A stretch of 64,000 bases of DNA from assembly GCA_023703655.1 (NCBI GenBank), contig CP097973.1, positions 276,813-340,812 on the forward strand, read 5' to 3'. The stretch is from SAR86 cluster bacterium (GTDB taxonomy: Bacteria; Pseudomonadota; Gammaproteobacteria; Magnimaribacterales; D2472). Made by a program: the position numbers and the translations under genes. Within the stretch, counting starts at the first letter, position 1. Every line of letters starts with the position of its first letter. Shown piece after piece: positions 4,973 to 50,418 of this stretch. The notes beneath the pieces were generated by a model. It was not told the origin of the DNA and did no database searches. It saw nothing but the letters and a program-made list of their open reading frames with translations.

Positions 4973-5442
4973 TATTCCTTTAAAGATAACTCCAAAATAC
5001 CACCATATGCTGAATTAATTTTGATTTTATAGGATCTATTTTGGATTTCACAAATTGATTGAAGCTTCTCATAATTTTTTTTGTGCACTAGGCACTCAAT
5101 TAATCCAGGAATTTCAGTTAAAAGATCTTTAAAATGAATCCCATACTTCTCAACATTTGATTTTTCTTCATAATGAAAACCACTTAATGTAACATCACCG
5201 TCTTTAAAATTTATTTTTAATCTTTCGTAATTACCTAATATTGCACTATATGGCTGTATAATAAGATATTTATTATAAATACTAATGAGAATTCTTGATC
5301 TATATACTTCATTGTTATAGCTAAACTTCAAACTTCCTTTCAAGATATTTAATGGCTGATCATTGAATGTCGCACATGCAGAATGAATAATTAATAAAAA
5401 AAATATGGAAATAAATTGAATGAATCTTAGATTATTTGGCAT
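4972..5442 (-). CDS. lolB: outer-membrane lipoprotein LolB-like (called mainly by position)
   Basis: Occupies the canonical lolB slot between hemA (divergent) and ispE. Signal peptide ends in a Cys (LLIIHSAC), although the lipobox is atypical. Sequence similarity is too weak to judge by eye. Confidence 0.5.
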   Translation of the reverse strand: MPNNLRFIQFISIFFLLIIHSACATFNDQPLNILKGSLKFSYNNEVYRSRILISIYNKYLIIQPYSAILGNYERLKINFKDGDVTLSGFHYEEKSNVEKYGIHFKDLLTEIPGLIECLVHKKNYEKLQSICEIQNRSYKIKINSAYGGILELSLKE

Positions 5443-33270: not shown

Positions 33271-33362
33271 CTAATCTACTTGATAATAACTTTTCTTCCA
33301 GAACGTCAGCTCTTCACTAATAAAATAATTTAAAATTAAGTTAACTATTTATTTTTGCAAGT

Positions 33363-34202
33363 ATGCTATCGATTATTTCTTCTCCAATTGGAAACTTAAA
33401 AGACATATCTTATAGATCAATTGAAGCACTTAAATGTGCATCTATTGTTTATTGTGAAGATACAAGAGTCACAAAAAAATTATTAAATCATTACTCAATC
33501 AAAGATAAACTGCTACTTCCATATAATGACCATAATGAAAAAAAAGTACTTAAAGAAATAATAGAAAAACTTGAGCATGATGAAAATATAATTTTAATAT
33601 CAGATGCTGGGACACCACTAATATCAGACCCAGGCTTTCCACTCATAAGAGAATGTATCAAAAGAGATATTGATTTTATTGTTTTGCCTGGCCCAACGGC
33701 AATAATTCCATCACTAATCTACTCAGGATTTCCAATTGATAAATTCAGCTTTTATGGCTTCATTCCAAGATCAATAAATAAGCAACAAGAGCTTGCCAAA
33801 ACTATAATTACAAGCAAGAGTCCTATAGTTTGTTTTGAAAATATAAAACGGCTACAAAAAACATTAAACAACATGAATGAAGTGTTTGATAAGAACATTC
33901 AGGTTGTGATATGTAGAGAAATTACAAAAAAATTTGAAAAAATCTACAGAGGAGATGTATCTTCAATTATTAATCGGATTGAAAACAATACTCTGAAGAT
34001 AAAAGGAGAAATCGTAATAGTTTTTTATGCAAAAAACGCAATTGCTGTAAAAGATAATGAAAAACTAATCAATGAAATTGGAGAAAATTTTTTAAAATAT
34101 CTCTCTAAAAGAGATGCATCAAAGCTAATCTCGGAACTTTATGATATTGACAGATCTGAAACATACAAATTTTTGGTAGATATATCTAAAAAACACATTT
34201 GA
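33363..34202 (+). CDS. rsmI: 16S rRNA (cytidine1402-2'-O)-methyltransferase RsmI
   Basis: Tetrapyrrole-methylase-fold motifs (CEDTR, SDAGTPLISDPG). Confidence 0.88.
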   Translation: MLSIISSPIGNLKDISYRSIEALKCASIVYCEDTRVTKKLLNHYSIKDKLLLPYNDHNEKKVLKEIIEKLEHDENIILISDAGTPLISDPGFPLIRECIKRDIDFIVLPGPTAIIPSLIYSGFPIDKFSFYGFIPRSINKQQELAKTIITSKSPIVCFENIKRLQKTLNNMNEVFDKNIQVVICREITKKFEKIYRGDVSSIINRIENNTLKIKGEIVIVFYAKNAIAVKDNEKLINEIGENFLKYLSKRDASKLISELYDIDRSETYKFLVDISKKHI

Positions 34203-34217
34203 TATTAAAATATCTCC

Positions 34218-34540
34218 GAGTTGGTCGGATGATCGCTGAATTTTCAGAGGAAAGTCCGGACTTCATAGAGCAAGACGCCAGGTAACGCCTGGGGGGCGTG
34301 AGCCCACGGATAGTGCAACAGAAAATATACCGCCTTATAAGGTAAGGTTGAAAAGGTGAGGTAAGAGCTCACCGCTAAAATGGTAACATTTTAGGCAGTG
34401 TAAACCCCGTCTGAAGCAAAACCAAATAGGAGTCTTTTGAGTTGCTCGCTTTAGACTCGGGTAGGTTGCTAGAATATTGTGGTGACACAATATCAAGATA
34501 GATGATCATCAATACAGAATCCGGCTTATAGACCAACTCA
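34218..34540 (+). ncRNA. rnpB: RNase P RNA, bacterial type A
   Basis: P1 pairing of GAGTTGGTC (34218-) with GACCAACTC (-34539). Universal GAGGAAAGTCCGG, the GGTAACGCCTGGG loop, AGCAAAACC..ATAGG, and ACAGAATCCGGCTTATAG near the 3' end. As I recall, rnpB sits between rsmI and mraZ in Pseudomonas too. Confidence 0.92.
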
Positions 34541-34566
34541 ACTAACACTAATTTTTTTTTGATAAA

Positions 34567-34605
34567 AAGTGTGTAAAAGTGTGCAAAAAATGTTATAAAG
34601 TGTGT
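34567..34605 (+). promoter_or_regulatory. putative MraZ operator: four direct AAAGTGTG-type repeats at 10-11 bp spacing
   Basis: AAGTGTGT (34567), AAGTGTGC (34577), AAATGTTA (34587-34588) and AAGTGTGT (34598). GTGTG cores lie at 34569, 34579, 34590 (ATGTT) and 34600. The array ends about 20 nt upstream of the mraZ ATG. It matches the published AAAGTG[T/G] and TGGGN direct-repeat logic of MraZ boxes. Confidence 0.6.
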
Positions 34606-34625
34606 AATTAGACATTTTTTTTAAC

Positions 34626-35093
34626 ATGTACGGATACAATTTAGTTGCAATTGACACAAAGGGGAGAATCTCTTTACCATCAAAATATAGAGAAAGCCTC
34701 AAAGATTTTGAAGCTTCAAAAATAATTATTACAAGAGACCCTCAATATCCTTCCTTAAAGCTTTATCCAAAAAAAACTTGGGATTATATTTCATCAAACC
34801 TTATTTCTTTACAGACACTTGATCCAATTGTAAGAAAGTTGCAATGGACCATATTGGGAAATGCTTCTGTAATTAATTTTGATCTTAATAATCGTATGAA
34901 TGCTCTCATTTCATCTGACTTACGTGAATATGCGGAATTAAACAACGAAAAAAAAGTTGTCTTAATTGGTATGGGAGATAAATTTGAAATTTGGAATAGC
35001 GAGAATTGGGATGCAAGGCAAACATCAAGCGCATTATCTTCAGAAATTTTAGAAATAGTTTTACCAGACAGTGTTAAAAATCTTTCATTTTAA
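34626..35093 (+). CDS. mraZ: division/cell-wall cluster transcriptional regulator MraZ
   Basis: Duplicated SpoVT-AbrB halves (DTKGRISLPSKYR in the first). First gene of the dcw cluster. Confidence 0.9.
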   Translation: MYGYNLVAIDTKGRISLPSKYRESLKDFEASKIIITRDPQYPSLKLYPKKTWDYISSNLISLQTLDPIVRKLQWTILGNASVINFDLNNRMNALISSDLREYAELNNEKKVVLIGMGDKFEIWNSENWDARQTSSALSSEILEIVLPDSVKNLSF

Positions 35094-35104
35094 AAGGGGA
35101 AAAT

Positions 35105-36220
35105 ATGAATTGGGAAATAATTGATGACAATACACAGCAAGCCAAAATCAAAGTAATTGGAGTTGGGGGTGCTGGGGGCAATGCTGTGATTCATATGATG
35201 AATCATAATATTGAAGGTGTAGAGTTTATTTGCGCGAATACAGATTCTCAGGCGCTATCAAATGCAAAAGGCGCAACAATTTTAAAACTTGGTATTACAA
35301 ATGGTCTCGGAGCGGGGGCTAATCCAGAGATTGGTAGACAAGCAGCTGAGAGAGATCGTGAATCAATAACAGAACTGCTTCAAGGATCAGATATGGTATT
35401 TATCACAGCTGGTATGGGTGGAGGTACAGGTACAGGCGCAGCTCCAATAATTGCATCTATCGCTAAAGAAGTTGGTGCACTGGCTGTGGCAGTAGTGACC
35501 AAACCATTTAAATTAGAGGGCAAAACACGAGAGAAAGCTGCGGAAGGTGGAATAGCAAGCCTTGTTGAAGAGGTAGATAGCCTTATAACAATCCCAAATC
35601 AAAAACTTATGGAAGTATTAGGTTTAAACGTATCAATGGAAGAAGCCTTTGCTAAGGCTGATGATGTCCTAAAGGGAGCAGTTCAAGGAATTTCAGATAT
35701 TATTATGAAGCCCGGATACATAAATGTAGATTTCAATGATGTAAAAACTGTAATGTCTGAAAAAGGTATTGCTATGATGGGTACGGGTATTTCCTCAGGA
35801 AAAGACAGAGGTAGTCTTGCTGCATCTGAAGCAATAGGATCAGAACTACTTGAGGATATTAATCTTCGTGATGCACGTGGCGTACTAGTAAATTTAAGTG
35901 CAAAATCCCCAACTCTTGGAGATATGGATGAGGTCAGTAAAGTAATAGAGGCGATTGTCGCTGAGGATGCACAAGTTATTTATGGCGCAGTTATCGATGA
36001 TAGTTTGAGTGATGATGAATTAACTGTAACAGTCGTTGCTACTGGGGTAAATCAACAGTTACCAAGAGTTGCAGTCGAAAATTCACAATCTACCGTTCAG
36101 CTATCTCCAGTAGGTTTAGATAAAGACCATACTAAGTCAGAAGATAATGTTGGTACATCGTCTGCAGAGGATATGGATATCCTTGATGTACCAACTTTTA
36201 TGAGAAAGCAGGTCGATTAA
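35105..36220 (+). CDS. ftsZ: cell division GTPase FtsZ
   Basis: IKVIGVGGAGGNAV, tubulin signature GGGTGTGAAP, NVDFNDV, C-terminal peptide DILDVPTFMRKQVD. High identity to E. coli FtsZ throughout. SD AAGGGGA lies upstream. Confidence 0.97.
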   Translation: MNWEIIDDNTQQAKIKVIGVGGAGGNAVIHMMNHNIEGVEFICANTDSQALSNAKGATILKLGITNGLGAGANPEIGRQAAERDRESITELLQGSDMVFITAGMGGGTGTGAAPIIASIAKEVGALAVAVVTKPFKLEGKTREKAAEGGIASLVEEVDSLITIPNQKLMEVLGLNVSMEEAFAKADDVLKGAVQGISDIIMKPGYINVDFNDVKTVMSEKGIAMMGTGISSGKDRGSLAASEAIGSELLEDINLRDARGVLVNLSAKSPTLGDMDEVSKVIEAIVAEDAQVIYGAVIDDSLSDDELTVTVVATGVNQQLPRVAVENSQSTVQLSPVGLDKDHTKSEDNVGTSSAEDMDILDVPTFMRKQVD

Positions 36221-36223
36221 TTA

Positions 36224-37117
36224 ATGTCTCATATTCCAGTTTTACTGGAAGAATCAATTGATTTCCTCAGAATAATTCCAGGTGGTAATTATTTTGATGG
36301 AACGTATGGAGAAGGCGGTCACTCAAATGCAATACTCAAAAATCTCAACAAAGAAGGTAGATTATTTGCAACTGATCTAGATCTTGGTGCAATTGAGATC
36401 GCAAAGAAAAATATGGTTGATAATCGTTTTAGTATATTTCATAGTTCATTTAGTAACATCAAACATTTGGACATTCCTCATTTAGATGGCGCTATTTTTG
36501 ATTTTGGCATGTCATCAAATCAACTGGATGATCCATCAAGAGGATTTAGCTTTAAAAATAATGGACCTATTGATATGCGAATGAATACAGAAAGCGATGC
36601 AAATCTTAAAAAATGGATAAATAATGCTTCAGAAAATGAAATTGAGGATGTAATAAGACAGTTTGGTGAAGAGAGTAACGCTAAAAAAATATCTAAAAAG
36701 ATTATTGAAGTTAGGCAAAATAAATCTATTAATGATACACATAATCTAGCTGAAATTATAAAAAGCGTATCGCGATTTAAAAAAAATAAGATTCATCCGG
36801 CAACAAAAACTTTCCAAGCATTTAGGATCTTTATAAATAATGAACTTGATGAAATACAAAAATTGTTAAGTTCAATTGATGATATGATGAAAGTAGGAAG
36901 TAGATTGGTTTTTATATCTTTTCATTCTTTAGAAGATAGATTGATCAAAAACTTTTTTCGACCAAAAGAAATCAATTATCCACGCGATATCCCCATTAAT
37001 AATGAAATTGAAATTAGATATAAGGCGTTAGGAAAAAAGATTCGTGCATCAAAAGATGAAATTAAAATAAATCCTCGAAGTAGAAGTGCAATTTTGCGAG
37101 CATTTGAAAAGATATGA
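36224..37117 (+). CDS. rsmH: 16S rRNA (cytosine1402-N4)-methyltransferase RsmH
   Basis: HIPVLL and DGTYGEGGHS motifs. Confidence 0.93.
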   Translation: MSHIPVLLEESIDFLRIIPGGNYFDGTYGEGGHSNAILKNLNKEGRLFATDLDLGAIEIAKKNMVDNRFSIFHSSFSNIKHLDIPHLDGAIFDFGMSSNQLDDPSRGFSFKNNGPIDMRMNTESDANLKKWINNASENEIEDVIRQFGEESNAKKISKKIIEVRQNKSINDTHNLAEIIKSVSRFKKNKIHPATKTFQAFRIFINNELDEIQKLLSSIDDMMKVGSRLVFISFHSLEDRLIKNFFRPKEINYPRDIPINNEIEIRYKALGKKIRASKDEIKINPRSRSAILRAFEKI

Positions 37118-37386
37118 ATAACACTGCAAATTTTTCTTTTATATCAGCTATAGGATTAATTTTTTTAATTTCGAATCTCTTGCTAATCAAAATAAAATGG
37201 GAGAATGCTGTCATGTCAGGACAGCTTGATCGTTTGAATCTTGAAAATACAAAATTACAAGAAATTAATTTAAAACTTAATACAGAGAAATATTTTTTGT
37301 CTTCTCTATCACTCAATGAGAGGATTGCATCAGAGGAATTGCAAATGGTTAAAGCTGAGCCAACAATTTACTTAGTTCGCGAATGA
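37114..37386 (+). CDS. ftsL: cell division protein FtsL
   Basis: 90 aa, single TM plus a leucine-zipper-like coiled coil, in the canonical slot between rsmH and ftsI. Confidence 0.75.
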   Translation: MNNTANFSFISAIGLIFLISNLLLIKIKWENAVMSGQLDRLNLENTKLQEINLKLNTEKYFLSSLSLNERIASEELQMVKAEPTIYLVRE

Positions 37387-38963
37387 AAACAAGAAGATCT
37401 CGTCTGATTACGGTTATAAGTGTTTTCATTTTGACACTAGTAATAATCATATCAAGACTATTTTATTTATATTTTGAAGATAGTGGATTTTTACAAAATA
37501 AAGGTAAATTAAAACTAATCACATCGAGAAAAATCTCATCTATTAGAGGACAAATTTTAGACAAAAATAATAATCCGCTCGCTGTGACTGTTATGCAATA
37601 TGATCTTTATGGATTAAAGGGTTTAAATTTAAGCCATGACGATTTACTTACACTTAATTTAAATCCTGAAAACAAGATTTTAAATAAAAAGGCACTGCTA
37701 AAAAGAGATATAACCTTAGGTGAAATAGAATTAGTAAAAAAATTTAAAAACAACTTATTGGAGATTGAAAATACTCCTAAAAGGTATTACCCATTGAGTG
37801 AGCAAGCATCGCCATTAATTGGATTTTCAGGGAAGGATAATATAGGCCTTGAGGGGCTAGAAAAAATTTATCAAGAATCGATTCAAGGAGAGGATGGCGA
37901 AATTGAAATACATAAAAACGCTCATCAAATAGCTATTAAACCTCCAATAGTTAAAAAAGAATCAATTGAAGGAAAAGATATTTATCTCACCATTGATAGA
38001 GACATCCAATTCAAAGCTTATAAACATTTATCTGCAGGTGTGATATCAAATAATGCTCGGGGTGGTAGTTTAATTGTATTAGATAACTTGAATGCTGAAA
38101 TCTTGGCAGTTGCAAGCTTTCCTTCTTATAATCCAAATGATCCACAAAGGAAGATTCAGAGAAACCGTGCCTTTTTAGATAGTTTTGAACCTGGATCATT
38201 ACTGAAACCTATCGCACTTGCAATTGGATTAGATAAGGATTTTATTGATAAAAATATAAAGATTCAGACCAGCCCAGGAACTTTAACTCTTAATGGAAAT
38301 GTGGTTCATGATTCGAATAACAATCATGGTGAGTTATTGCCATCAGGTGTAATAGTTAAATCAAGTCAAGTAGGAGCAGCAAAGATTGCATTAAAGATAG
38401 GGGAAGAATCTCTTCTTAAAGGATATAAAGAATTTGGTTTTACTAATAATCCATACATTAGTTTTCCAAGTATTTCATTTGGATCTGTAATCAGTCGAAA
38501 TGATCTTAGTGATCACGAGATAGCAAGTTTAGGTTATGGTTACAATATTGAAGCCACCGCCTTACAGATTGCTTTAGCTTACTCAGTGATTGCTAACGGA
38601 GGGATTAAGAAGGAATTTTCATTACTAAAAAATGAGAATACTGGATCAAAAAGAATAATTTCTCAAGTAAATTCAGATTATGTTTTATCTTCTTTAAGAG
38701 AGGCTGTACTTATGGGAACAGGATATAGAGCCAATTCAAATAAAATAGAAATTGCAGGTAAAACTGGAACTGCTCATAAAAGTGGAGGTAAGGGTTATAG
38801 CCAAAGTAAATATACAGCAAGTTTTGCCAGCATTGGCCCACTTTCTAATAGAAAATACACCGTAATTGTTGTTATTGATGAACCAGATCCAAATAAATAT
38901 TTTGGTGGTGAAGTTGCTGCACCAATCGCAAAAAGTTTATTTGAAGATTTGCTTTCAATCTAA
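37383..38963 (+). CDS. ftsI: peptidoglycan D,D-transpeptidase FtsI (PBP3)
   Basis: N-terminal TM, SxxK (GSLLKP) and KTGT motifs, canonical position. Confidence 0.9.
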   Translation: MKTRRSRLITVISVFILTLVIIISRLFYLYFEDSGFLQNKGKLKLITSRKISSIRGQILDKNNNPLAVTVMQYDLYGLKGLNLSHDDLLTLNLNPENKILNKKALLKRDITLGEIELVKKFKNNLLEIENTPKRYYPLSEQASPLIGFSGKDNIGLEGLEKIYQESIQGEDGEIEIHKNAHQIAIKPPIVKKESIEGKDIYLTIDRDIQFKAYKHLSAGVISNNARGGSLIVLDNLNAEILAVASFPSYNPNDPQRKIQRNRAFLDSFEPGSLLKPIALAIGLDKDFIDKNIKIQTSPGTLTLNGNVVHDSNNNHGELLPSGVIVKSSQVGAAKIALKIGEESLLKGYKEFGFTNNPYISFPSISFGSVISRNDLSDHEIASLGYGYNIEATALQIALAYSVIANGGIKKEFSLLKNENTGSKRIISQVNSDYVLSSLREAVLMGTGYRANSNKIEIAGKTGTAHKSGGKGYSQSKYTASFASIGPLSNRKYTVIVVIDEPDPNKYFGGEVAAPIAKSLFEDLLSI

Positions 38964-38965
38964 CA

Positions 38966-40387
38966 ATGAACTCAAACTTCAAACATCAATCAATTCAAAA
39001 ACATTTTGGAGTAATAATTGAAAATGACAAGGTTATAACAAACATAACTGATAGCACAGAAAATATTTCAAAAGGCTCAATTTTTTTTGCAAGAGAGGGC
39101 ATGTCATCCCATGGTAGTGACTATATTAATTTAGCTCTTAAGAGGGGAGCAATTTTAATAATTTCCTCTAAAGCTATTAACAATAAAAAAGTACATTACG
39201 TACCTGATCTTGAAAATATACTCGCTGGATTTCTTTATGACTATTATGATATTGAACAGAAGAAAGTAAAATTTTTTGGGATAACTGGCACTAACGGTAA
39301 AACATCAATAGCATATTTGGCTCATAAAATAACTCAAGATCACAAACAATCATCTGCTTATGTGGGTACATTGGGATATATAAGTGAAAATTTCAGATCA
39401 AAAAGTAACAATACAACACCATCAATTTTTTTTATTTTTGATTGTATTTCTCAGACAAAATACAGTAATACTTTATATGTATATTTGGAACTCTCCTCCC
39501 ACGGATTATCTCAAAGACGATTAAATAATCTTTGCTTTGAGAAAGTATGTATTTGTAACATTGCCTCAGACCATCTTGATTACCATGAAAATCATGAGGC
39601 ATACACAAAGTCAAAACTTTCGGCACTGAAACTTTATGCTCGAAGAGAACCACTTATTAATCATGAAATAACCGAAAAAAATGCAATGAATGTTAACCAC
39701 TATTCAATATCTGAAATAAATGAAAATGCGACTTTTTATGTAAATATTGTAAGATCATCTCCCGAAAGATCTGAATGTAATATTTTTAACAATAAACAAA
39801 AAATTTTTTCGTTCTCAACAGATTTTTTTCCCGACTTTAATATACTTAACGCTTGCTATTCTATTTGTTTAATTTTAGACCAAGATTTCTTTAATTTTCA
39901 AAAAATTGATTTTAAAAGATTATCTCTACCACCTGGCAGAAATAATATTTTCAAAAAAGATCAAAAGATGATAGTGGTTGATTTTGCTCATAATCCTAAT
40001 GCTTTAGAATTGATAATATCATCGTATAGATCTTCATATAAAAGTATTTGGACTTTGTTTGGTTGTGGAGGGAATAGAGATAAATCAAAGCGGAATAAAA
40101 TGTTTAAAATTGCAAAAAAATACTCACAGAAAATTTTTATCACCTCTGATAATTCAAGATTTGAGAACTTCAATAGTATTGTTAGAGACATATTAGGAGA
40201 GGACAGATTTGATAATTTAGAGGTTATAAAAGATAGAGATTCAGCTATTAAGATCGCAATTGATACATTACCAAAAAATGTGCCTTTGTTGATTCTTGGA
40301 CGCGGGCATGAAGAAACATTAAGTTTAGGAAAAAATATAATTAATCATTCTGATATAAAAGCTGTGCAAAGGTATATTTCTTTATGA
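38966..40387 (+). CDS. murE: UDP-MurNAc-tripeptide synthetase MurE
   Basis: Mur ligase P-loop GITGTNGKTS, position. Confidence 0.88.
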   Translation: MNSNFKHQSIQKHFGVIIENDKVITNITDSTENISKGSIFFAREGMSSHGSDYINLALKRGAILIISSKAINNKKVHYVPDLENILAGFLYDYYDIEQKKVKFFGITGTNGKTSIAYLAHKITQDHKQSSAYVGTLGYISENFRSKSNNTTPSIFFIFDCISQTKYSNTLYVYLELSSHGLSQRRLNNLCFEKVCICNIASDHLDYHENHEAYTKSKLSALKLYARREPLINHEITEKNAMNVNHYSISEINENATFYVNIVRSSPERSECNIFNNKQKIFSFSTDFFPDFNILNACYSICLILDQDFFNFQKIDFKRLSLPPGRNNIFKKDQKMIVVDFAHNPNALELIISSYRSSYKSIWTLFGCGGNRDKSKRNKMFKIAKKYSQKIFITSDNSRFENFNSIVRDILGEDRFDNLEVIKDRDSAIKIAIDTLPKNVPLLILGRGHEETLSLGKNIINHSDIKAVQRYISL

Positions 40388-41721
40388 AAATTTTAAATGA
40401 TCGATCTTCAGTTTTCCGCTATCTAGAGATTCCTTTATCAGAGAAAGCCAACAAAAAAATTTCTAAAATTGTAATTGATTCTAGAAATGTAAAAGAGGAT
40501 TGCCTATTTTTTGGCTTAGAGGGTAAAAATACAAATGGAAGTTTATTTGCAGAGGAAGCGTTGCAAAATGGAGCTTCATTAGTTGTATCAAGTAACAAAA
40601 GTTTTGCTATGGATTCTCCAAATCACATTTTTCATGAGTCTCCAATTGATGCTATGGCTAAAATAGCATCAGGTATTATTGATGATTTTACAGGTAACAT
40701 TATTGGAGTTACTGGCAGTAGTGGAAAAACAACAGTAAAAAACCTCATCCAACATACTTTGAATGATTGCTTTGGAACAATTGGAAACTATAACAATGAA
40801 ATAGGTTTGCCTTTCAGTGTTATGAATTTAAGTCAGAACCATAAAACAGCAGTTTTTGAATTAGCTGCAGGCAAACCAAAGGATATAGATTTTTTAGCCA
40901 AGATCGTAAGACCACATTTTGGAATTATAACGTCCATTGGCCATGCACATCTCAAACAAATGAAATCAATTGAGGGAGTTCTAAAAACAAAGTCAGAAAT
41001 CATACCTAATATTCGTGAAGGTGGTTTTCTTTTGATACCTCACATTGAGTATGTTGATTATTGGAAATCAATTAGGAATGATATAACAGTATTTACATTT
41101 GGAGATCATCCTGATTCTGATTACAAAATATCAATGATAGAACCTAGCGAAAAATTAATTAATTTTTCTGTTTACGTAAAAGAATATGGTCAAACATTTG
41201 ATTTTGTTACCGACTTACTCGGGATGCATAATATCCAGAATATTACAGCTGCCTTCATCTGCTCTCAATTAATTGATAATGACTACCTTGCTTTTCAAAA
41301 ACGTTTAGAGGCATTTAAAAATAATGAAAACAGACTTTCTGTATCTAGATGGATTAATGGATCAACAGTTATTAATGATACCTATAATGCAAATCCTGAA
41401 TCAACTGTCGCAGGCATCAAAGTTTTATGTGACTTTCCAAAAAGAAAAATCATGATATTTGGTGATATGTTAGAGCTTGGAACACTTTCCGATGATTTTC
41501 ACAAGATGATTGGTAATTTTGCTAAAGACTCTAACGTTGACTTATTTATAGGTTTTGGAAATAAAACTAAATTAAGTGTAAAAGCATATGGGAAGAATGG
41601 GCTTTTTTTTAATGATGCAAAAAAACTTAATCAATTTCTTGCAAGAGAAATAAAAAAAGATGACATAATCTATATTAAAGGGTCAAGAGGAATGAAAATG
41701 GAGAGGTTTATAGAAGAATGA
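40384..41721 (+). CDS. murF: UDP-MurNAc-pentapeptide synthetase MurF
   Basis: P-loop GVTGSSGKTT, position. Confidence 0.9.
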   Translation: MKILNDRSSVFRYLEIPLSEKANKKISKIVIDSRNVKEDCLFFGLEGKNTNGSLFAEEALQNGASLVVSSNKSFAMDSPNHIFHESPIDAMAKIASGIIDDFTGNIIGVTGSSGKTTVKNLIQHTLNDCFGTIGNYNNEIGLPFSVMNLSQNHKTAVFELAAGKPKDIDFLAKIVRPHFGIITSIGHAHLKQMKSIEGVLKTKSEIIPNIREGGFLLIPHIEYVDYWKSIRNDITVFTFGDHPDSDYKISMIEPSEKLINFSVYVKEYGQTFDFVTDLLGMHNIQNITAAFICSQLIDNDYLAFQKRLEAFKNNENRLSVSRWINGSTVINDTYNANPESTVAGIKVLCDFPKRKIMIFGDMLELGTLSDDFHKMIGNFAKDSNVDLFIGFGNKTKLSVKAYGKNGLFFNDAKKLNQFLAREIKKDDIIYIKGSRGMKMERFIEE

Positions 41722-42800
41722 TAGAAATTTTAGGTGCATATTTACTAAATTTCGATCCAGGTTTTAATATTTTGCGATATTTAACTTTTAGAACACTCGG
41801 CGGTACAATCACAGCTCTGACATTATCAATTTTACTTGGTCCGATTTTTATAAATTTTTTAAAAAATATTCAATTCTCTCAAGTCATTAGAAAGGAGGGA
41901 CCTCAATCTCATCAGAAAAAGTCTGGTACTCCTACTATGGGTGGTTTGATTATTATTGCTTCAGTAATAATCTCAACACTTATCTGGGCTGATTTATCCA
42001 ATGCTTATGTATGGACACTTATCATTGTGACAATTTTATTTTCAATAGTTGGTTTAATCGATGATTATTTAAAGATTTCTAATAAAAATTCAAAAGGATT
42101 ATCTGGCAAAATGAAGCTTCTTCTTCAAACTGGCTTTGCATTGATTACTCTCATAATTTACTTGTATTATTCAACCGATAGCCAACTATATTTCATTCTA
42201 CCATTTAACAAAAACTTTATATTTGATATATCTATTCCATTATTTTTATTAATTAGCACTTTTGTGATTGTTGGATCTTCAAATGCTGTCAATTTAACTG
42301 ATGGCCTTGATGGGCTAGCTATTTTACCAACAGTTTTGATAATGGGTGGTTTGGGATTAGTTGCATATGCAATGGGTAACATCATTATTGCTGATTACCT
42401 TTACATTCCTCATTTACCTCAAGCAGGTGAATTAATTGTGGTTGCAGGATCATTTATCGGAGCAGGTATTGGCTTTTTATGGTACAACACATATCCAGCT
42501 CAAGTATTTATGGGTGATGTTGGATCGTTAACTCTTGGGGCTATACTTGGAACTTTTTCTGTAGTACTTAGACAAGAAGTAATCTTTGCATTTATGGCAG
42601 GTGTTTTCATAATGGAAACATTAAGTGTAATTATTCAAGTGCTCTCTTATCGACTTTTTAAAAAAAGAATTTTCCTCATGGCACCAATACATCATCACTT
42701 TGAACTCAAAGGTTGGGAAGAGCCAAAAGTAATTGTTAGATTTTGGATTATTACTTTTTTATTGGTTTTATTTGCTCTAGCAACACTAAAGATTAGGTGA
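41718..42800 (+). CDS. mraY: phospho-MurNAc-pentapeptide translocase MraY
   Basis: NAVNLTDGLDGLA and PIHHHFE motifs, polytopic membrane protein. Confidence 0.95.
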   Translation: MIEILGAYLLNFDPGFNILRYLTFRTLGGTITALTLSILLGPIFINFLKNIQFSQVIRKEGPQSHQKKSGTPTMGGLIIIASVIISTLIWADLSNAYVWTLIIVTILFSIVGLIDDYLKISNKNSKGLSGKMKLLLQTGFALITLIIYLYYSTDSQLYFILPFNKNFIFDISIPLFLLISTFVIVGSSNAVNLTDGLDGLAILPTVLIMGGLGLVAYAMGNIIIADYLYIPHLPQAGELIVVAGSFIGAGIGFLWYNTYPAQVFMGDVGSLTLGAILGTFSVVLRQEVIFAFMAGVFIMETLSVIIQVLSYRLFKKRIFLMAPIHHHFELKGWEEPKVIVRFWIITFLLVLFALATLKIR

Positions 42801-44041
42801 AAGAGAATTTTTTAATTATTGGTGCAGGTAAATCAGGTTTATCTGTTGCAAAATTTTTAAAAAAAAAGGGCATTACTCCAAAAATTATAGATACAAGATC
42901 TAAAAAAGAATTGTATTCGATCGAAAACTTAATTAACCATGATATTGAATATGAAACAGATCTTATAAACTTTCAATTTAAAGATTTCAATAAAATATAC
43001 ATATCACCAGGTATAAATCCAATTTTGATTGGTCATTATAAAAATAAAATTCTAAGCGAATTAGATTTATTTCTTAATGAAACAAGTAAGCCAATCATCT
43101 CGATTACTGGTACTAATGGAAAGAGCACTGTAATTTCTTATTTATATCAAATTTTTAAGAAGCATAATTTAAATACTCCAATTGGAGGAAATTTTGGTAT
43201 GCCAATGTTGGATTTATTTGATCAAAAAGATGAAACTGATTTTTTTTTACTTGAATTATCAAGCTTTCAACTTGAATTTTTTAGTGGAAAAAAAGCTCAT
43301 CATCAATCAAAAGTATTTGCCTCGTTTTTAAATTTTTCTCAGGATCACTTAGACAGGCATGGATGTATTAAAAATTATTTAGCTGCAAAATCAACTATAT
43401 CTAAAATGACTTTAAAAGATGATTATTATTTTTATAATCTTGAAAATCAAGAAACCAACCTATTAACTCAAGCTAAAAAAGTACCATTTAAACAAAATAA
43501 AAATGATCCTACCAACGTAAATGAAAAAGTTGCTAAATTAATTGCTGAGACAGTGTTGAGAAATTTCAATATCCCCATGAGTAAAAAGAATTTTCAAATG
43601 GAAGAATTAAAATTCAGGAATCAAATTGTTAAAGTAAATTCGAAACTAACTGTAATCAACGACTCTAAATCTACAAATCCGAATTCAACAGAATTTTCAA
43701 TCAAAAAACTTAAAAAAAAGAACTCCATTTTAATTCTTGGAGGAAAGAAAAAAGGTTGTACATTTAATAAGCTTTTTATTCCAAATATTATAAAAAGAGT
43801 TTACGTATTTGGTGATGACTATGAAAGTATTGCTAAAGAGATTAATTGCAAGAATGTTTTTGTTAATGAGAATCTGAAGGAAGTGATTGCGGATATATTT
43901 AATTATTTAAAAACAAAAGATTCACTCAGCAATTGGCAAATTCTTTTCAGTCCTGGATGCGCAAGTTTTGATCAATTTAAAAATTATGAGGATAGAGGTA
44001 GATTGTTTGACCAATATATTATTGAAAATTCATGCAAGTAA
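42797..44041 (+). CDS. murD: UDP-MurNAc-L-Ala:D-Glu ligase MurD
   Basis: IGAGKSG Rossmann motif and P-loop ITGTNGKST. GTG start overlaps the mraY stop. Confidence 0.88.
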   Translation: MKENFLIIGAGKSGLSVAKFLKKKGITPKIIDTRSKKELYSIENLINHDIEYETDLINFQFKDFNKIYISPGINPILIGHYKNKILSELDLFLNETSKPIISITGTNGKSTVISYLYQIFKKHNLNTPIGGNFGMPMLDLFDQKDETDFFLLELSSFQLEFFSGKKAHHQSKVFASFLNFSQDHLDRHGCIKNYLAAKSTISKMTLKDDYYFYNLENQETNLLTQAKKVPFKQNKNDPTNVNEKVAKLIAETVLRNFNIPMSKKNFQMEELKFRNQIVKVNSKLTVINDSKSTNPNSTEFSIKKLKKKNSILILGGKKKGCTFNKLFIPNIIKRVYVFGDDYESIAKEINCKNVFVNENLKEVIADIFNYLKTKDSLSNWQILFSPGCASFDQFKNYEDRGRLFDQYIIENSCK

Positions 44042-45138
44042 ATAATTCATTTTTTTTAACTATTACTTTTACGCTTATACTTTTATTTGGATTAACCTTT
44101 GTAGCATCCTCATCAGTCTTTGAGGGTTTCGAACTTTCTGGCGACCCTTTTTACTTTGCTAAAAGACAATTTATTTTTGTGATTATTGGGATAATATCAA
44201 TGTTAATAATCTTGAACATCCCATCGGATAGTTACGCAAAATTCGATTGGTTAATAATCATATTTTGTTTTTTATTACTTTTAGCTTTGTTTGTTCCAAA
44301 TATTGGTAAGGTAGTTAATGGAAGTCTCAGATGGATTGATTTAGGCCTCTTTAATTTACAACCATCTGAACTTGCAAAGTTTGGATTAATTATCTATGTA
44401 TCCGGATATTGTGTACGAAGATCAAATCAAATTTCCACAATTTTTGGCTTTGTGAGACCTCTAATGGTTGTATCATTATTTTCATCTGCAATCATTTTTC
44501 AACCAGACTTAGGTTCAGTGGTAATTATCTTTTGCGTAATACTATCTTTATTATTTTTAGCTGGTATATCCATAGGGCAATTCTCATTATTAGTTTTAGT
44601 GCTTTCTGTTTTAGCATACATTGCCGTAAGGCATGAGCCATATAGATACGCAAGACTAATTTCATTCACTGATCCTTTTGCTCCTGAGTTTGAGGAAAGA
44701 TCTGGATACCAATTATCAAATGCATTAATTGGTATAGGTAGAGGTGAGTTTTTTGGAGTTGGGCTTGGAAATAGCATTCAAAAAAATGCATATTTACCTG
44801 AACCACATACCGACTTTATTTTTGCAATAATTCTTGAGGAAACTGGAATTCTCGGGGGTCTAGCATTAATTTTTTTGTTTATATTTTTGCTTTTCTTAAT
44901 TTTAAAAATTTCAAATGAATCATTTAAGATTAAAAATTCATATCAAGGTTTTCTTTGTTTTGGGATAGCTACACTCATCGCTATACAAACAATTTTTAAT
45001 CTTGGTGTTAATCTAGGATTATTACCAACCAAGGGACTTACTTTGCCATTTGTAAGTTATGGAGGAGCAAGTTTAATTACCTTTATGGCAATGATAGCAA
45101 TTGTTTTGAGAATCGATTATGAAAATAGAAGTTATTAA
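44032..45138 (+). CDS. ftsW: SEDS peptidoglycan polymerase FtsW
   Basis: QPSE.AK and PTKGLTLPFVSYGGAS motifs, 10-TM protein. Confidence 0.92.
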   Translation: MQVNNSFFLTITFTLILLFGLTFVASSSVFEGFELSGDPFYFAKRQFIFVIIGIISMLIILNIPSDSYAKFDWLIIIFCFLLLLALFVPNIGKVVNGSLRWIDLGLFNLQPSELAKFGLIIYVSGYCVRRSNQISTIFGFVRPLMVVSLFSSAIIFQPDLGSVVIIFCVILSLLFLAGISIGQFSLLVLVLSVLAYIAVRHEPYRYARLISFTDPFAPEFEERSGYQLSNALIGIGRGEFFGVGLGNSIQKNAYLPEPHTDFIFAIILEETGILGGLALIFLFIFLLFLILKISNESFKIKNSYQGFLCFGIATLIAIQTIFNLGVNLGLLPTKGLTLPFVSYGGASLITFMAMIAIVLRIDYENRSY

Positions 45139-46185
45139 ATGAAGATAATTATTGCAGGAGGAGGAACTGGTGGTCATATATTTCCCATAATTGAATTTAT
45201 CAACGAGTGTGCTGCAAGAAAAATTGAAGTTTTGTGGTTAGGAACAAACAGAGGTCTTGAAAGAAAACATAAACCTGACGGATGTACACTCATTGAAATG
45301 AATATTTCAGGATTTAGAGGAAAAAACTTATTTAAAAAGTTCATTTCAATAGTTTCATTATTTTTCTCAATCATTAAATTAATTCCAAAAATTTTATTTT
45401 ATAGGCCAACAGCAATTGTATGTTTTGGAGGTTATGTATCCTTACCAGCTGGTATAACATCAATTATTTTAGGTAAATCATTATATTTGCATGAGCAAAA
45501 TGCAGTGTTTGGAACATCTAACAAGATTCTAAAATTCTTTTCAAAGAAGATTTTTCTTGGTTTTCCAATTAATGGCTATAATTCTCACAAAATAGTTCTT
45601 ACAGGAAATCCGATAAGAAATAATTTACAAAATCAAACTCAATCATCCAAACAACATGATGAATTCAATGTACTTGTTACAGGTGGCAGTTTAGGTTCAG
45701 AATTTATAAACACTCATGTACCTAAAGTGCTGTCATCAATAAATTTTGCTGATTATGGAATTAATAAATTAAATATTTTTCATCAAACTGGTGTTAATAA
45801 ATCTGACTACGTTAGAGATCTGTATTCAACTAGTATTTGTTTGCAGACAAAAGATTTTTTTGATGACATGCATCAATATATTTTCAATGCTGATTTAATC
45901 ATTACCAGAGCAGGCGCATTAACATTGTCAGAAATCTCAGCTTATAAAAAATATTGTCTGATGATTCCTTTGCCAACCAGTATTGATGATCATCAATTAA
46001 AGAATGCAAGTATTATTGAAGACTTGGATAGAGGAACAATTTTTGAAGAGCATCAAGAAATAAAAATTCTTCAGGAAAAAATAAAATTCATAATGCACAA
46101 CAAAAAGTATGCTTGCGAAGACTCTAAAGTTATACCAAACCACTTTGATGCAGCAAAGAAAATTCTAGATTGCATATTAAACTAG
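45139..46185 (+). CDS. murG: lipid II synthase MurG
   Basis: GGTGGHIFP N-terminal motif, GT28 fold, position. Confidence 0.9.
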   Translation: MKIIIAGGGTGGHIFPIIEFINECAARKIEVLWLGTNRGLERKHKPDGCTLIEMNISGFRGKNLFKKFISIVSLFFSIIKLIPKILFYRPTAIVCFGGYVSLPAGITSIILGKSLYLHEQNAVFGTSNKILKFFSKKIFLGFPINGYNSHKIVLTGNPIRNNLQNQTQSSKQHDEFNVLVTGGSLGSEFINTHVPKVLSSINFADYGINKLNIFHQTGVNKSDYVRDLYSTSICLQTKDFFDDMHQYIFNADLIITRAGALTLSEISAYKKYCLMIPLPTSIDDHQLKNASIIEDLDRGTIFEEHQEIKILQEKIKFIMHNKKYACEDSKVIPNHFDAAKKILDCILN

Positions 46186-46195
46186 TTTTTTTGTA

Positions 46196-47587
46196 ATGCT
46201 AACAGGAATTACCAGACATAATAGAATCCATCTAGTCGGAGTAGGCGGATCCGGCATGATTGGCATAGCTAGAATTCTTTTGAAACAAGGTTTCGATGTT
46301 AGTGGTTCAGATCTAAATGACTCAGATGAACTGCAAATACTTAAGTCTCTTGGTTTGAGATTGCAAAACAATCATTCTCCAAATTTAATTAAAGATGCTG
46401 AGCTTATTATTGTTTCATCAGCTATAAGTGCAAATAATTTAGAACTTATCTATGCAAATAAAAATAAAATTATTGTTATCCCCAGATCTGAAATGCTTAG
46501 CTCATTGATGAAGCCTTTTAGAAGTATTGCGGTGGCAGGATCTCATGGAAAGACAACCACAACAAGCTTGATAGCAAACATATTTAATGAAGCTGATTTA
46601 AGTCCAACATATGTTATTGGTGGAAAAATACTCAGTGATGATCAAAGTGCTGACCTTGGCAAAGGGGAGTATATGATTGTTGAGGCAGATGAAAGTGATG
46701 GATCTTTTTTAAGCTTAAATCCCGAAATAATAGTTATCACAAACATCGATAATGATCATCTTGCTTTTTATGACTCAAAACAATCAAAATTAAACGAGGG
46801 ATTTCTTAAATTTATAAATAACTTACCATTTAATGGTTACGTACTCCTCAATCAAGATGATCCAAATGTTCGTCTGATTAAAAATAACATCAAAAGGAAA
46901 GTTATTACTTACGGAACCTCATACCCATGTGACTACCAGATAATTTTTCATGACAGTGAAAATTTTTCTCAAGAATTCAAAGTTATAAATAAGAAAAACC
47001 GCTTAAGCATAGATTTAAAGACATCCTTGCTAGGAAAACATAATCTTTATAATGCTGCAGTTGCATCAATAATATCGATTGAGGAGGGCATAGCTATAAA
47101 CCATATTTCAAGAGCTCTAATAAAATTCTCTGGTGTTGAAAGGAGACTAGAGTTCAGCAGTATCACATTTACTGAACGAAGATTAGATATTATTGATGAT
47201 TATGGCCATCATCCAGCTGAAATTAGCGCAACGCTTAGTGTAATTGATTCTCTTTATGAGAAAAAAGAGTATATTATGTTTTTTGAGCCACACAGATACT
47301 CAAGAACTCTTCAATTAATGAATGAATTTGCAATACTATTAAGCAAAGTAAAAAACTTATTTATTTTAGAGATTTATCCAGCCTCAGAAGAGAATATTAC
47401 TGGCATCTCTTCTGAAACACTCATTGATGAAATTAATTTAAGAGGCGGTAATGCATCATTTGTAAAATTCAATGAGATTGACAATATAATTATTAATTCA
47501 AATAAGACAATTAAAGCAATTTTAATGCAAGGAGCTGGAAATATATCTGCTAAAACAAAACAACTAATTCATGAAATCCAATCATAA
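46196..47587 (+). CDS. murC: UDP-MurNAc:L-Ala ligase MurC
   Basis: GVGGSGM and P-loop AGSHGKTTTT. Confidence 0.92.
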   Translation: MLTGITRHNRIHLVGVGGSGMIGIARILLKQGFDVSGSDLNDSDELQILKSLGLRLQNNHSPNLIKDAELIIVSSAISANNLELIYANKNKIIVIPRSEMLSSLMKPFRSIAVAGSHGKTTTTSLIANIFNEADLSPTYVIGGKILSDDQSADLGKGEYMIVEADESDGSFLSLNPEIIVITNIDNDHLAFYDSKQSKLNEGFLKFINNLPFNGYVLLNQDDPNVRLIKNNIKRKVITYGTSYPCDYQIIFHDSENFSQEFKVINKKNRLSIDLKTSLLGKHNLYNAAVASIISIEEGIAINHISRALIKFSGVERRLEFSSITFTERRLDIIDDYGHHPAEISATLSVIDSLYEKKEYIMFFEPHRYSRTLQLMNEFAILLSKVKNLFILEIYPASEENITGISSETLIDEINLRGGNASFVKFNEIDNIIINSNKTIKAILMQGAGNISAKTKQLIHEIQS

Positions 47588-48503
47588 GAATATTGCAGTC
47601 CTTTGCGGGGGATCTTCATCTGAAAGGGAAATTTCTTTATTAAGTGGAAAAGGAGTTCATAAGGCAATTATTGAATTTGGTTATCAATCTGAACTAGTCG
47701 AATTTGATGATTTAAATAATCTTGAGGAATTAAAAAATTATGATTTTGTATTTATAGCACTTCATGGCTTTGAAGGTGAAGGAGGATTACTACAAAAAAA
47801 ACTAGATGATTTAAATATTCCATATACTGGCTCAAACTCTGAGGCCTGTAAAAATACTTGGAATAAAAAATTAACAAAAGAAATTCTTGAAAAGAATAAT
47901 ATAAAAACGCCAATGTGGCTTGAAATTGGAAAATTTAGTAAAACCATTGTCAACCATGGATTAGAAGTTTCTCCATTTGAAAGGTTCAGACCATTTAAAT
48001 ACCTTTTTTTAAAACCTCAAGAGGATGGGTCAAGCGTAGATATATTTAAAATAAGTGATATCCAGAGTTTAAAAAATGCTTACCGAGAATGCGCTGATCA
48101 TGACAGAGGATTCATGTTTGAAGAGTTTATTGATGGTAAAGAATTTACTGTAACGATTATAAATGATGTGTGTTACCCGCCAATAGAAATAATTACACAA
48201 AATGAATTTTATGATTATGATGCAAAATATATTTCAGATGATACGATTTTGAGAGAACCTATATTATCTGCTGCTGAGCTAGAGGAAATTCAAAAAATAT
48301 CCATTGATGCATATAAAGCTTTAAATTGTAGTGTTTGGGGCAGGGTGGATTTAATGCAATGCAAAAATACTCGGAAATTTTATGTCATTGAGATAAATAC
48401 AGTGCCGGGCATGACAGAACATAGTTGTGTTCCTAAATCTGGAAGTATGCTTGGTCTATCTTATGGCGAGATTGTTAAGAAAATAATTGATGCATCAATA
48501 TAA
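47571..48503 (+). CDS. ddl: D-alanine--D-alanine ligase
   Basis: GGSSSEREISL.SG, ALHG..GE.G, and an ATP-grasp C-terminus. Confidence 0.92.
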   Translation: MKSNHKNIAVLCGGSSSEREISLLSGKGVHKAIIEFGYQSELVEFDDLNNLEELKNYDFVFIALHGFEGEGGLLQKKLDDLNIPYTGSNSEACKNTWNKKLTKEILEKNNIKTPMWLEIGKFSKTIVNHGLEVSPFERFRPFKYLFLKPQEDGSSVDIFKISDIQSLKNAYRECADHDRGFMFEEFIDGKEFTVTIINDVCYPPIEIITQNEFYDYDAKYISDDTILREPILSAAELEEIQKISIDAYKALNCSVWGRVDLMQCKNTRKFYVIEINTVPGMTEHSCVPKSGSMLGLSYGEIVKKIIDASI

Positions 48504-49122
48504 GTTACATTTTTTAGTAATATTTTTATTTACTTCAGTTCCGATTAAAGCTTTAGAAAAGCATAATTTAAATATTTTTTTCGAATTTCCAGTAAAAAAT
48601 AGCTACGAAATGGAATTTATTGAAAATGTTAAATTAATAAAAATCCAAGATATTAAGGAGTATTTAGATTCACAAAATTGGGTCGAAACATACTTTTTTA
48701 AAAGATTTTTATTAGGCGACAGTTATCTTGTTATTAAACAATATCAGCCAATCTCAAAGTGGAATAATTCTTTTTTCATTAACGAAGATGGCAAGAAGTT
48801 CTTGATAGATGAGAGTGCCACACTCCCCAATATCGATTGTGATGAGAGCAAATTAAATGATGGTATTACATTATTACGCTTATTGAGCCCGCTGATTAAT
48901 AAAGCATCAAAAGAAATTTCATTAATTTCTTTCGAATATGGAGTAGGTTGGTCGATAACTACAGATGGGTATCAAAAAATTAGGTTTTCAGAAAAACTCT
49001 CGGAGAATAAAATCTCTGATTTCGAAATCTTATACACATATTTATTAGAAAATAACAAAAATCCTAGTATTATTGATATGAGAAATAAATCTGGAGCTGC
49101 ACTAAGGTATGACAAAAAATAA
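48487..49122 (+). CDS. ftsQ: cell division protein FtsQ (short, divergent)
   Basis: Single N-terminal TM, POTRA-like region, WSITTDGYQKIRF-type motif, canonical slot between ddl and ftsA. Confidence 0.65.
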   Translation: MMHQYKLHFLVIFLFTSVPIKALEKHNLNIFFEFPVKNSYEMEFIENVKLIKIQDIKEYLDSQNWVETYFFKRFLLGDSYLVIKQYQPISKWNNSFFINEDGKKFLIDESATLPNIDCDESKLNDGITLLRLLSPLINKASKEISLISFEYGVGWSITTDGYQKIRFSEKLSENKISDFEILYTYLLENNKNPSIIDMRNKSGAALRYDKK

Positions 49123-50338: not shown

Positions 50339-50381
50339 TTATTGATTTTTACTTTTTCATTCTTTAAAATTCCTTCTCCTT

Positions 50382-50401
50382 GGTTAGGTTTTGACCTAAT
50401 C
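50382..50401 (+). promoter_or_regulatory. 8-bp stem-loop in the ftsA-rpsF spacer (dcw terminator or rpsF leader element)
   Basis: GGTTAGGT-TTTG-ACCTAATC (one G-U pair), followed by TTT and then the rpsF SD GAGGA. Its function is not determinable from sequence alone. Confidence 0.3.
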
Positions 50402-50418
50402 TTTAACCATGAGGAAAA

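Follow-up and report, generated by a model that had tools for sequence, protein, structure and literature searches.

In the dcw cluster of cell-wall and division genes, the order mraZ-rsmH-...-ftsQ-ftsA-ftsZ is among the most conserved in bacteria, and in model organisms the placement of ftsZ after ftsA helps to balance FtsZ against FtsA. In Escherichia coli, internal promoters in ddlB-ftsA together with RNase E processing set the FtsZ:FtsA ratio. Here we describe an exception to this order in SAR86 marine bacteria. In a 64,000-nucleotide stretch of a SAR86 cluster bacterium genome (contig CP097973.1 of assembly GCA_023703655.1, positions 276,813 to 340,812; hereafter the window), ftsZ is the second gene of the cluster, between mraZ and rsmH, and its 3′ end contains a nucleotide element that is specific to SAR86.

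The transcriptional regulator encoded at the start of the cluster, MraZ, has been described in several lineages. Its published binding consensus consists of GTG(G/T) boxes with 6-nt separation (PMC12957436). In Mollicutes the boxes are of the AAAGTG(T/G) type, and Mycoplasma genitalium has four of them (PMC12957436; PMC8475190). Repression by Bacillus subtilis MraZ requires the DXXXR motifs, with residues R15 and R86. Internal promoters, transcript stabilities, and protein ratios in the dcw cluster have also been mentioned (PMC5089854). SAR86 corresponds to the order Magnimaribacterales, whose members have genomes of 1.05–1.66 Mb with 31–40% GC, grow as small coccobacillus cells, and account for ~2–6% of the surface-ocean community (PMC11582366).

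Results

ftsZ is the second gene of the SAR86 dcw cluster

All genes of the cluster are on the forward strand of the window. The first is mraZ (34626–35093; TIGR00242, 97.2 bits; PF02381), which is separated by an 11-nt spacer (35094–35104) containing the Shine-Dalgarno (SD) sequence AAGGGG (35094–35099) from ftsZ (35105–36220; TIGR00065, 381.5 bits), here displaced from its usual site after ftsA. The third gene, rsmH (36224–37117; TIGR00006, 321 bits), starts 3 nt past the ftsZ stop codon and is followed in canonical order by ftsL-ftsI-murE-murF-mraY-murD-ftsW-murG-murC-ddl-ftsQ-ftsA (37114–50338), as read from the list of open reading frames (ORFs), family hits, and Pfam. Within this run all junctions are 10 nt or less or overlapping, and across the 16 genes from mraZ to ftsA the largest gap is 11 nt. 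FtsL, FtsI, FtsQ, FtsA, and ribosomal protein S6 were recognized by family hits to the ORFs of the window, and the Mur, MraY, FtsW, and Ddl genes are covered by Pfam domains assigned at identical or related loci. In the canonical arrangement ftsZ closes the cluster at its 3′ end, right behind ftsA; here an 80-nt spacer (50339–50418, + strand) and rpsF stand at the breakpoint where ftsZ-lpxC would normally come next, and the remaining adjacencies are canonical. The upstream backbone is likewise kept (rplM-rpsI-petABC-sspA-rsmI-rnpB-mraZ...ftsA), with neighbors that presumably match those of Pseudomonas aeruginosa. The RNase P RNA gene rnpB (34217–34544; Rfam RF00010, 327.9 bits) lies directly 5′ of the operon on the same strand.

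A tblastn search found no second ftsZ within the 64-kb window, and neither lpxC nor secA, which lie 3′ of ftsZ in outgroups, was found there. The repeat finder returned only AT-rich chance matches flanking the ftsZ junctions. No mobile elements are present in the window, which contains housekeeping genes, including mreBCD and rpoN. The original prediction, made from the letters of the window, was therefore accurate at every position that it gave for the order mraZ-ftsZ-rsmH-ftsL...ftsA-rpsF, in the gaps of 11 nt and 3 nt beside ftsZ and the 80-nt spacer after ftsA, and in stating that rpsF replaces ftsZ and lpxC after ftsA and that the ftsZ junctions have no flanking repeats.

The same arrangement extends well beyond the window. 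Approximately 180 SAR86 loci from independent assemblies have mraZ-ftsZ, followed by rsmH wherever the contig extends that far. The exact FtsZ protein of the window occurs in 575 blocks of the assembly collection, and the six independent assemblies containing it that we compared (single-cell genomes, TARA, and ENA) have identical gene order. The mraZ-ftsZ-rsmH context was also found for FtsZ homologs 73% and 78% identical to that of the window, and neighboring dcw proteins are just 29–59% identical between lineages that have this context in common. Matches to a degenerate DNA pattern bridging the junction (an MraZ motif, a 150–180-nt gap, and the FtsZ motif GVGGxGxNA) were found in JGI metagenomes at no fewer than 120 loci, all marine, with GC of 0.295–0.43, FtsZ 65–100% identical to that of the window, and the backbone sspA-rsmI-mraZ-ftsZ-rsmH as far as the contigs reach. 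A further 44 loci, reached by homolog lookups independent of the pattern, have the same order. The minimum pairwise identity among 81 distinct FtsZ sequences is 64%, and they form 17 clusters at 90%. At the other end of the cluster, the ftsA-rpsF-rpsR-rplI-dnaB breakpoint is shared by a divergent SAR86 lineage with FtsA 84% identical.

As outgroups we used the distant relatives among the matches listed from an FtsZ scan of the genome collection, which span Cellvibrionales, Halieaceae, SAR92, Pseudomonas, Xanthomonadales, betaproteobacteria, and others. Here ftsA is directly 5′ of ftsZ in 79 of 79 informative loci, with lpxC, an M23 peptidase gene, and secA downstream of ftsZ. Because the position of ftsZ in SAR86 differs from that in all 79, it is not a chance feature. 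FtsA of the window is 100% identical to a protein listed at NCBI under "SAR86 cluster bacterium". Two assemblies with the exact locus (GCA_902600705.1 and GCA_902542515.1) belong to genus Su-G1 of the family Suzuki (PMC11582366 supplement), and the Genome Taxonomy Database (GTDB) places GCA_902600705.1 in f__D2472, g__MED-G82, the genus to which the window belongs; the 73% identical FtsZ cluster maps to the Suzuki genus Su-G3 (g__D2472). Judging from these comparisons, conservation of mraZ-ftsZ-rsmH throughout the order Magnimaribacterales is likely, and we regard it as virtually certain that the relocation is a real, clade-wide, vertically inherited trait. The original prediction had allowed that the order might be a trait of the lineage that was already widespread and documented. 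The first part of this holds, in that the order is old and common to a broad SAR86 clade, while earlier documentation of it was not found.

ftsZ lies behind a conserved MraZ operator and has the strongest predicted ribosome-binding site

The MraZ protein of the window scores 97.2 bits against TIGR00242, 1.1 short of the curated cut-off of 98.35, and PF02381 is assigned to the identical protein. It has two DXXXR motifs (D10-TKG-R14 and D86-LNN-R90), the first of which is kept in 94 of 100 SAR86 MraZ sequences and the second in 91 of 100. In the genus of the window, the second DNA-binding repeat (MraZ residues 86–98; 34881–34919) is atypical, reading DLNNRMNALISSD compared with DPxGRMLxLxPSE in other SAR86 lineages; the usual Gly and Pro are gone and the D...R is retained. 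This atypical repeat may explain why the TIGR00242 score falls below the cut-off.

Just 5′ of mraZ lies the MraZ operator (34566–34606, + strand), whose boxes read AAAGTGTG with starts at 34569, 34579, and 34600 (GTGTG at 34569–34573, 34579–34583, and 34600–34604); a weaker box, ATGTT, occupies 34590–34594. The operator thus has at least three GTG(G/T) direct repeats with ~10-bp periodicity, in line with the published MraZ consensus (PMC12957436). The GTGTG boxes are unchanged in the alignment of upstream sequences (A1), although the mraZ codons diverge, and of 92 distinct SAR86 upstream sequences 88 have the operator architecture, which ends 18–26 nt 5′ of the mraZ ATG. The distance from the 3′ end of rnpB to the first box is 12–37 nt across SAR86 lineages. 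We conclude that the GTGTG boxes are a genuine conserved operator to which MraZ is predicted to bind, and ftsZ is, as originally proposed, operon gene 2 right behind it. A candidate extended −10 element, TGtTATAAA (34592–34600), overlaps boxes 3 and 4.

On the + strand, a scan from 34100 to 37500 revealed no terminator-like site. Nor did a hidden ftsZ promoter emerge within mraZ: third-codon entropy is ordinary across the 3′ half of the gene, which has no conserved synonymous sites. One sigma-70 match inside mraZ (TTGACA-18-TACCAT, 34651–34680) was rejected as unconserved in other lineages. With 16 genes and no gap greater than 11 nt, the cluster is most likely one transcription unit.

Translation signals differ sharply among the first three genes. 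The mraZ-ftsZ gap is 10–22 nt in 122 of 125 loci, and within this spacer an AGGGG or GGAG core is conserved and the remainder is variable. The predicted duplex of the ftsZ leader with the anti-SD sequence (−7.8 kcal/mol) is the strongest of the 16 operon genes in the window, and 98% of 60 distinct ftsZ leaders reach −6 kcal/mol or lower. The corresponding value for mraZ is +0.5 kcal/mol in the window (median −0.1), and none of 64 distinct leaders (0%) reach −6. For rsmH there is no consistent SD (median −2.7; 3% of 34 leaders at −6 or lower). In 85 of 85 loci, rsmH begins 1–4 nt past the stop codon of ftsZ, a spacing that would fit termination-reinitiation, with coupled and weaker translation of rsmH.

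Two JGI loci show oddities at these genes. At one (P0261), a single called protein of 525 aa contains the MraZ, Tubulin, and FtsZ_C domains, apparently either an mraZ-ftsZ fusion or a lost stop codon. At the other (L225, a 989-kb contig), mraZ is truncated (127 aa) and rsmH is split into 168-aa and 36-aa pieces. Indel errors in long reads could account for both, as could real decay.

The 3′ end of ftsZ contains a conserved nucleotide element

The last 70 nt of ftsZ are constrained at the nucleotide level. A fold scan found the ftsZ 3′ end to be unusually stable in five divergent lineages (z −2.4 to −4.3), and the median z is −2.76 for SAR86 tails, −0.19 for outgroup tails, and −1.39 for an internal ftsZ control. 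Among 54 non-redundant ftsZ genes, normalized synonymous-codon entropy is 0.68–0.82 in each 20-codon bin up to codon 340, 0.22 for codons 341–360, and 0.49 for codons 361–371. The codons of the element are nearly fixed (Gly-GGC, Ser-TCG, Ser-TCT, Ala-GCA, Glu-GAG, Phe-TTC, and Val-GTG), and outside it the corresponding residues vary or prefer A/T-ending codons, such as Val-GTT/GTA and Phe-TTT. Of 92 SAR86 loci, 73 have the element motif at a fixed offset; of 79 outgroup ftsZ tails, 0 have it. It was also considered as a dispersed motif, and this was rejected: it occurs nowhere else in 1.14 Mb of SAR86 DNA. No credible Rfam match was found for the element.

The element can fold into a hairpin, HP1 (36149–36195, + strand), with an outer stem (36149–36159/36185–36195), an inner stem (36167–36173/36178–36184), and an unpaired, invariant bulge, GTCTGCA (36160–36166, + strand). 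Its 3′ arm codes for the essential DVPT of the C-terminal peptide, and its arms were also picked up by the repeat finder. In a 31-sequence alignment, 92.7% of cells are compatible with HP1 pairing, compared with 40–55% when the partners are slid by 1–3 columns. Five pairs are altered on both sides, a degree of covariation matched by 0 of 500 shuffles. For example, the pair 34-76 is CG in 27 sequences, UA in 4, and unpaired in none, and the UA form recurs in separate FtsZ groups. The inner stem compensates even where an amino acid changes (GAA AUU GAU UUC versus GAU AUG GAU AUC). That the HP1 base pairs are kept by compensatory changes, over and above the effect of coding constraint, has modest support, most pairs being invariant. 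A second, small hairpin (HP2, UUCCAG/CUGGAA; 36234–36250, + strand) covers rsmH codons 4–9; it is 98.9% paired yet invariant, so it offers no covariation evidence, and for the Leu codon that it pairs, 31 of 31 sequences use CTG. A helix between the AUGAGA codons of ftsZ and the start of rsmH, present in the minimum free energy (MFE) fold of the window, was rejected, at 68% paired and no better than shuffles.

One sublineage (L195, L113, L132, and L143) lacks the element. Here the rare Ser codons TCG TCT have become TCA TCA, the peptide GGTSSAE has become SSPSSLE, and both halves of a site resembling a sigma-54 promoter are gone; the gene order and a 1-nt ftsZ-rsmH gap are unchanged. Because loss of the element came with a change in the peptide, it is the nucleotides and not the peptide that the other lineages conserve.

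Pairing leaves the invariance of the GUCUGCA bulge unexplained. We considered whether the element is a sigma-54 (RpoN) promoter driving rsmH-ftsA apart from mraZ-ftsZ. Most lineages have TGGCAC-N5-CTGCA, one mismatch from TGGCAC-N5-TTGCA (10 of 11 core positions), with correct GG/GC spacing and at the fixed offset in 73 of 92 loci. The −12-like CTGCA falls in the unpaired bulge, the very part whose invariance the hairpin does not account for; rpoN is present in the window (21684–22925); both half-sites vanish together in the sublineage described above; and the motif is missing from the 79 outgroup ftsZ tails. The copy in the window, TGGTAC (36151–36156)-N5-CTGCA (36162–36166), nevertheless has two mismatches (9 of 11), and matches of that quality occur at chance level (19 found, 14.6 expected). 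Moreover, no conserved upstream activator site was seen, the upstream linker codons being variable, and no enhancer-binding protein was identified; the 1.14 Mb of sampled SAR86 DNA offers no other site for calibration. A promoter would also not account for the constraint on the 3′ arm (the GTG and TTC codons) or for the covariation of the pair 34-76. We thus consider a sigma-54 promoter unlikely as the full explanation. The element is most likely a structured RNA with a sequence-specific bulge, as its pairing and codon constraint suggest, possibly overlapping a sigma-54 site.

It is about equally unlikely that the relocation had no regulatory consequence, with ftsZ and the downstream genes served by internal promoters and the order fixed by chance during streamlining. 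Conservation detects promoters poorly in AT-rich genomes, the E. coli cluster has several internal promoters (PMC5089854), and the ftsZ-tail element could itself be a promoter for rsmH-ftsA. Against this, the 10–22-nt mraZ-ftsZ spacer contains just the SD, and in third-codon entropy the 3′ half of mraZ gives no sign of a conserved element. In addition, the gene order, its tight junctions, and the uneven SD strengths persist across lineages whose neighboring proteins are 29–59% identical, which points to selection and not drift.

The relocated ftsZ looks native

FtsZ exceeds the TIGR00065 equivalog cut-off (381.5 versus 295.2 bits) and has PF00091 and PF12327 on record. FtsZ is marked by GGGTG(T/S)G, the tubulin signature for GTP binding, by the T7 loop, and by a peptide at the C terminus that binds FtsA and ZipA. 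All three are readable in the translation: GGGTGTG (GMGGGTGTGAAP), INVDFNDV, and DVPTFMRKQVD (DILDVPTFMRKQVD). Identity to FtsZ of Cellvibrionaceae is 55% and to that of SAR92 51%, in comparison with 58–59% for FtsA and 52% for MraY, neither of which has moved. The bit scores of FtsZ over the 79 outgroups correlate with those of FtsA (Spearman 0.76) and, over the 48 outgroups in which MraY gave a long match, with those of MraY (Spearman 0.72). That the outgroup profile of FtsZ tracks FtsA and MraY is what would be expected of a gene with the same history as its former neighbors.

Xenologous replacement, in which the native copy after ftsA was lost once a foreign ftsZ had been put beside mraZ, would fit the observations that SAR86 FtsZ is at most 55–61% identical to any outgroup FtsZ among the matches listed and that one top match is a betaproteobacterial metagenome-assembled genome (MAG). 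We consider it very unlikely. FtsZ has diverged from Cellvibrionaceae and SAR92 to the same extent as the unmoved FtsA and MraY, it ranks the outgroups as they do, and its best relatives are mostly Pseudomonadales/Cellvibrionales gammaproteobacteria, as is the case for FtsA; in addition, neither flanking repeats nor mobile genes were found in the window. The comparisons thus support a native gene that was relocated, in agreement with the earlier proposal of an intact, gamma-type FtsZ that is not a foreign paralog. The probability that the order is an assembly or binning artefact is negligible, and misassembly at the junctions is ruled out, as the same junctions recur in many independent assemblies, comprising single-cell genomes, TARA scaffolds, and ENA, JGI, and GOS contigs, some of them >1 Mb.

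As a separate observation, FtsA of the window is ~84–85% identical to that of abundant divergent SAR86 clusters and FtsZ ~73%, in hit sets that possibly come from different genomes. Much of the FtsZ difference is apparently in the variable C-terminal linker.

Other features of the window

The ftsA-rpsF spacer contains a sigma-70-like promoter (50342–50370) and a leader hairpin (50382–50401), and no intrinsic terminator was found in it on the + strand. The promoter is conserved (TTGATT or TTGCAA, 17 nt, TAAAAT) in the window and in two other loci (L211 and L213, about 11240–11320). The hairpin shows compensatory changes between lineages (UUAGGU/ACCUAA versus UUAUUUGC/GCAAAUAA). It is probably the autoregulatory leader of rpsF (S6:S18), at a score below the Rfam gathering threshold.

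Elsewhere in the window, a 156-aa ORF between ispE and hemA (4972–5442, − strand) has no Pfam hit at E ≤ 0.001 and could be a divergent lolB, judged by position. In other SAR86 genera, a gene of 367–381 aa without a Pfam hit lies on the opposite strand between sspA and rsmI (L087, 7149–8252, − strand; L089, 7085–8230, − strand), an interval that we take to be the position of lpoA in Pseudomonas; the genus of the window lacks this gene and has a 92-nt gap (33271–33362).

Discussion

We propose the following model for the SAR86 cluster. In the ancestor of a broad SAR86 clade, the native ftsZ would have left its site after ftsA and become fixed between mraZ and rsmH. One mRNA would run from mraZ to ftsA, starting at a promoter overlapped by the operator, and MraZ would feed back on the operon, with ftsZ as the first gene under its control. 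FtsZ would be made in excess of MraZ and RsmH because ftsZ alone has a strong ribosome-binding site. The downstream genes would receive less through coupled translation and perhaps also through the boundary element, which probably sets the expression passed on to rsmH-ftsA. The sequences themselves show the order and how widely it occurs, vertical descent of ftsZ, the operator, the close junctions, the SD pattern, and an element under constraint with covariation; single transcription, MraZ repression, translational coupling, and the function of the element are what we infer. For the whole package (relocation, a single MraZ-controlled unit, translational setting of FtsZ, and a boundary element) we estimate a probability of roughly 0.7. 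A stricter version is tentative, and we consider it possible rather than probable: that ftsZ is transcribed solely from the MraZ-controlled promoter and boosted by translation, and that the tail element, acting as an RNA hairpin with its sequence-specific bulge or as an overlapping sigma-54 promoter, gates the 14 downstream wall and division genes, replacing the internal-promoter/RNase E scheme of E. coli. As ftsA closes the operon, 13 kb downstream of ftsZ, the FtsZ:FtsA ratio would have to be set differently. The original prediction had argued for such a difference in control; the ribosome-binding site pattern and the element at the ftsZ-rsmH boundary lend it circumstantial support.

Several points weigh against the model or narrow its reach. 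The junction pattern needed an MraZ motif of the SAR86 type and was blind to other motifs and to canonical order. The named taxa are two genera of Suzuki/D2472, and the other three SAR86 families are represented through sequence divergence only. The consensus scan called no promoter at the operator, so that its position is not fixed by sequence, and there are two promoter geometries depending on lineage, a TGnTATAAA extended −10 over box 4 or a flanking TTGCAA-17-TATATT; the boxes overlap the core promoter in both, which suggests repression. In at least one Mollicute, MraZ is reported to activate and not repress (Fisunov et al. 2016). ftsZ may also be transcribed independently, because internal promoters that are AT-rich can be present without conserved synonymous sites. 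Finally, the element is dispensable in the sublineage that lost it.

We found no account of the mraZ-ftsZ-rsmH order of SAR86, or of the features around it, in the literature, and the main dcw survey (Megrian et al. 2022) possibly mentions it. Neither the dcw synteny paper nor the SAR86 isolate paper (PMC11582366) mentions the order, and papers on SAR86 ftsZ use the gene only as a growth marker. The SAR86-specific nucleotide element in the ftsZ tail is new here and is a candidate for a new cis-regulatory element. The order itself is a long-standing and clear departure from an arrangement renowned for its conservation, and it occurs in a globally abundant clade. As such it amounts to a natural experiment that asks if the dosage of division proteins depends on gene position. 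It also provides a simple genomic marker for the clade, and a cultured SAR86 strain with a closed genome (HIMB1674) makes the predictions testable.

The arrangement further calls for caution with growth indices derived in field studies from ftsZ transcripts or from the ratio of ftsZ to RNase P RNA, because SAR86 ftsZ neighbors rnpB and has 15 operon partners. In a 2026 field study, growth was indexed by the ratio of ftsZ to RNase P transcripts, and values for SAR86 were reported (PMC13349992). We observed that rnpB is followed only by a T-run, without a separate terminator hairpin, ahead of the MraZ operator; read-through from rnpB could couple the RNase P RNA and ftsZ transcripts in SAR86.

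Compared with the canonical gammaproteobacterial dcw cluster of E. coli and Pseudomonas, the SAR86 cluster has the same 15 genes from mraZ to ftsZ, the same order from rsmH to ftsA, and an MraZ operator at its 5′ end. It differs in that ftsZ is gene 2 and not last, lpxC and secA no longer adjoin, rpsF-rpsR-rplI-dnaB come after ftsA, and a lineage-specific element marks the ftsZ-rsmH boundary. In family-specific RNA elements there is a precedent in UpsM of the Rhodobacteraceae dcw cluster, also a cis-acting RNA in a conserved cluster (PMC5089854). UpsM, however, is a 5′ leader/sRNA with a terminator upstream of mraZ, whereas the SAR86 element shows no features of a terminator and lies inside coding sequence, where two genes of the cluster meet.

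The mra operon of B. subtilis resembles the SAR86 locus in its three GTG-type promoter repeats and in the two DXXXR motifs of MraZ, and in B. subtilis the operon is autorepressed. There the MraZ regulon is mraZ-mraW-ftsL-pbpB, with ftsZ outside it, whereas ftsZ would come first among the genes affected in SAR86. By analogy, the closest functional parallel to the SAR86 cluster is the reduced Mollicute operon mraZ-mraW-ftsA-ftsZ (e.g. M. genitalium), in which ftsZ also lies close behind an MraZ-bound promoter, and the AAAGTGTG boxes of SAR86 resemble the Mollicute AAAGTG(T/G) form. In Mollicutes this proximity arose through gene loss and ftsZ is last, after rsmH and ftsA, whereas SAR86 retains the full cluster and has ftsZ before rsmH.

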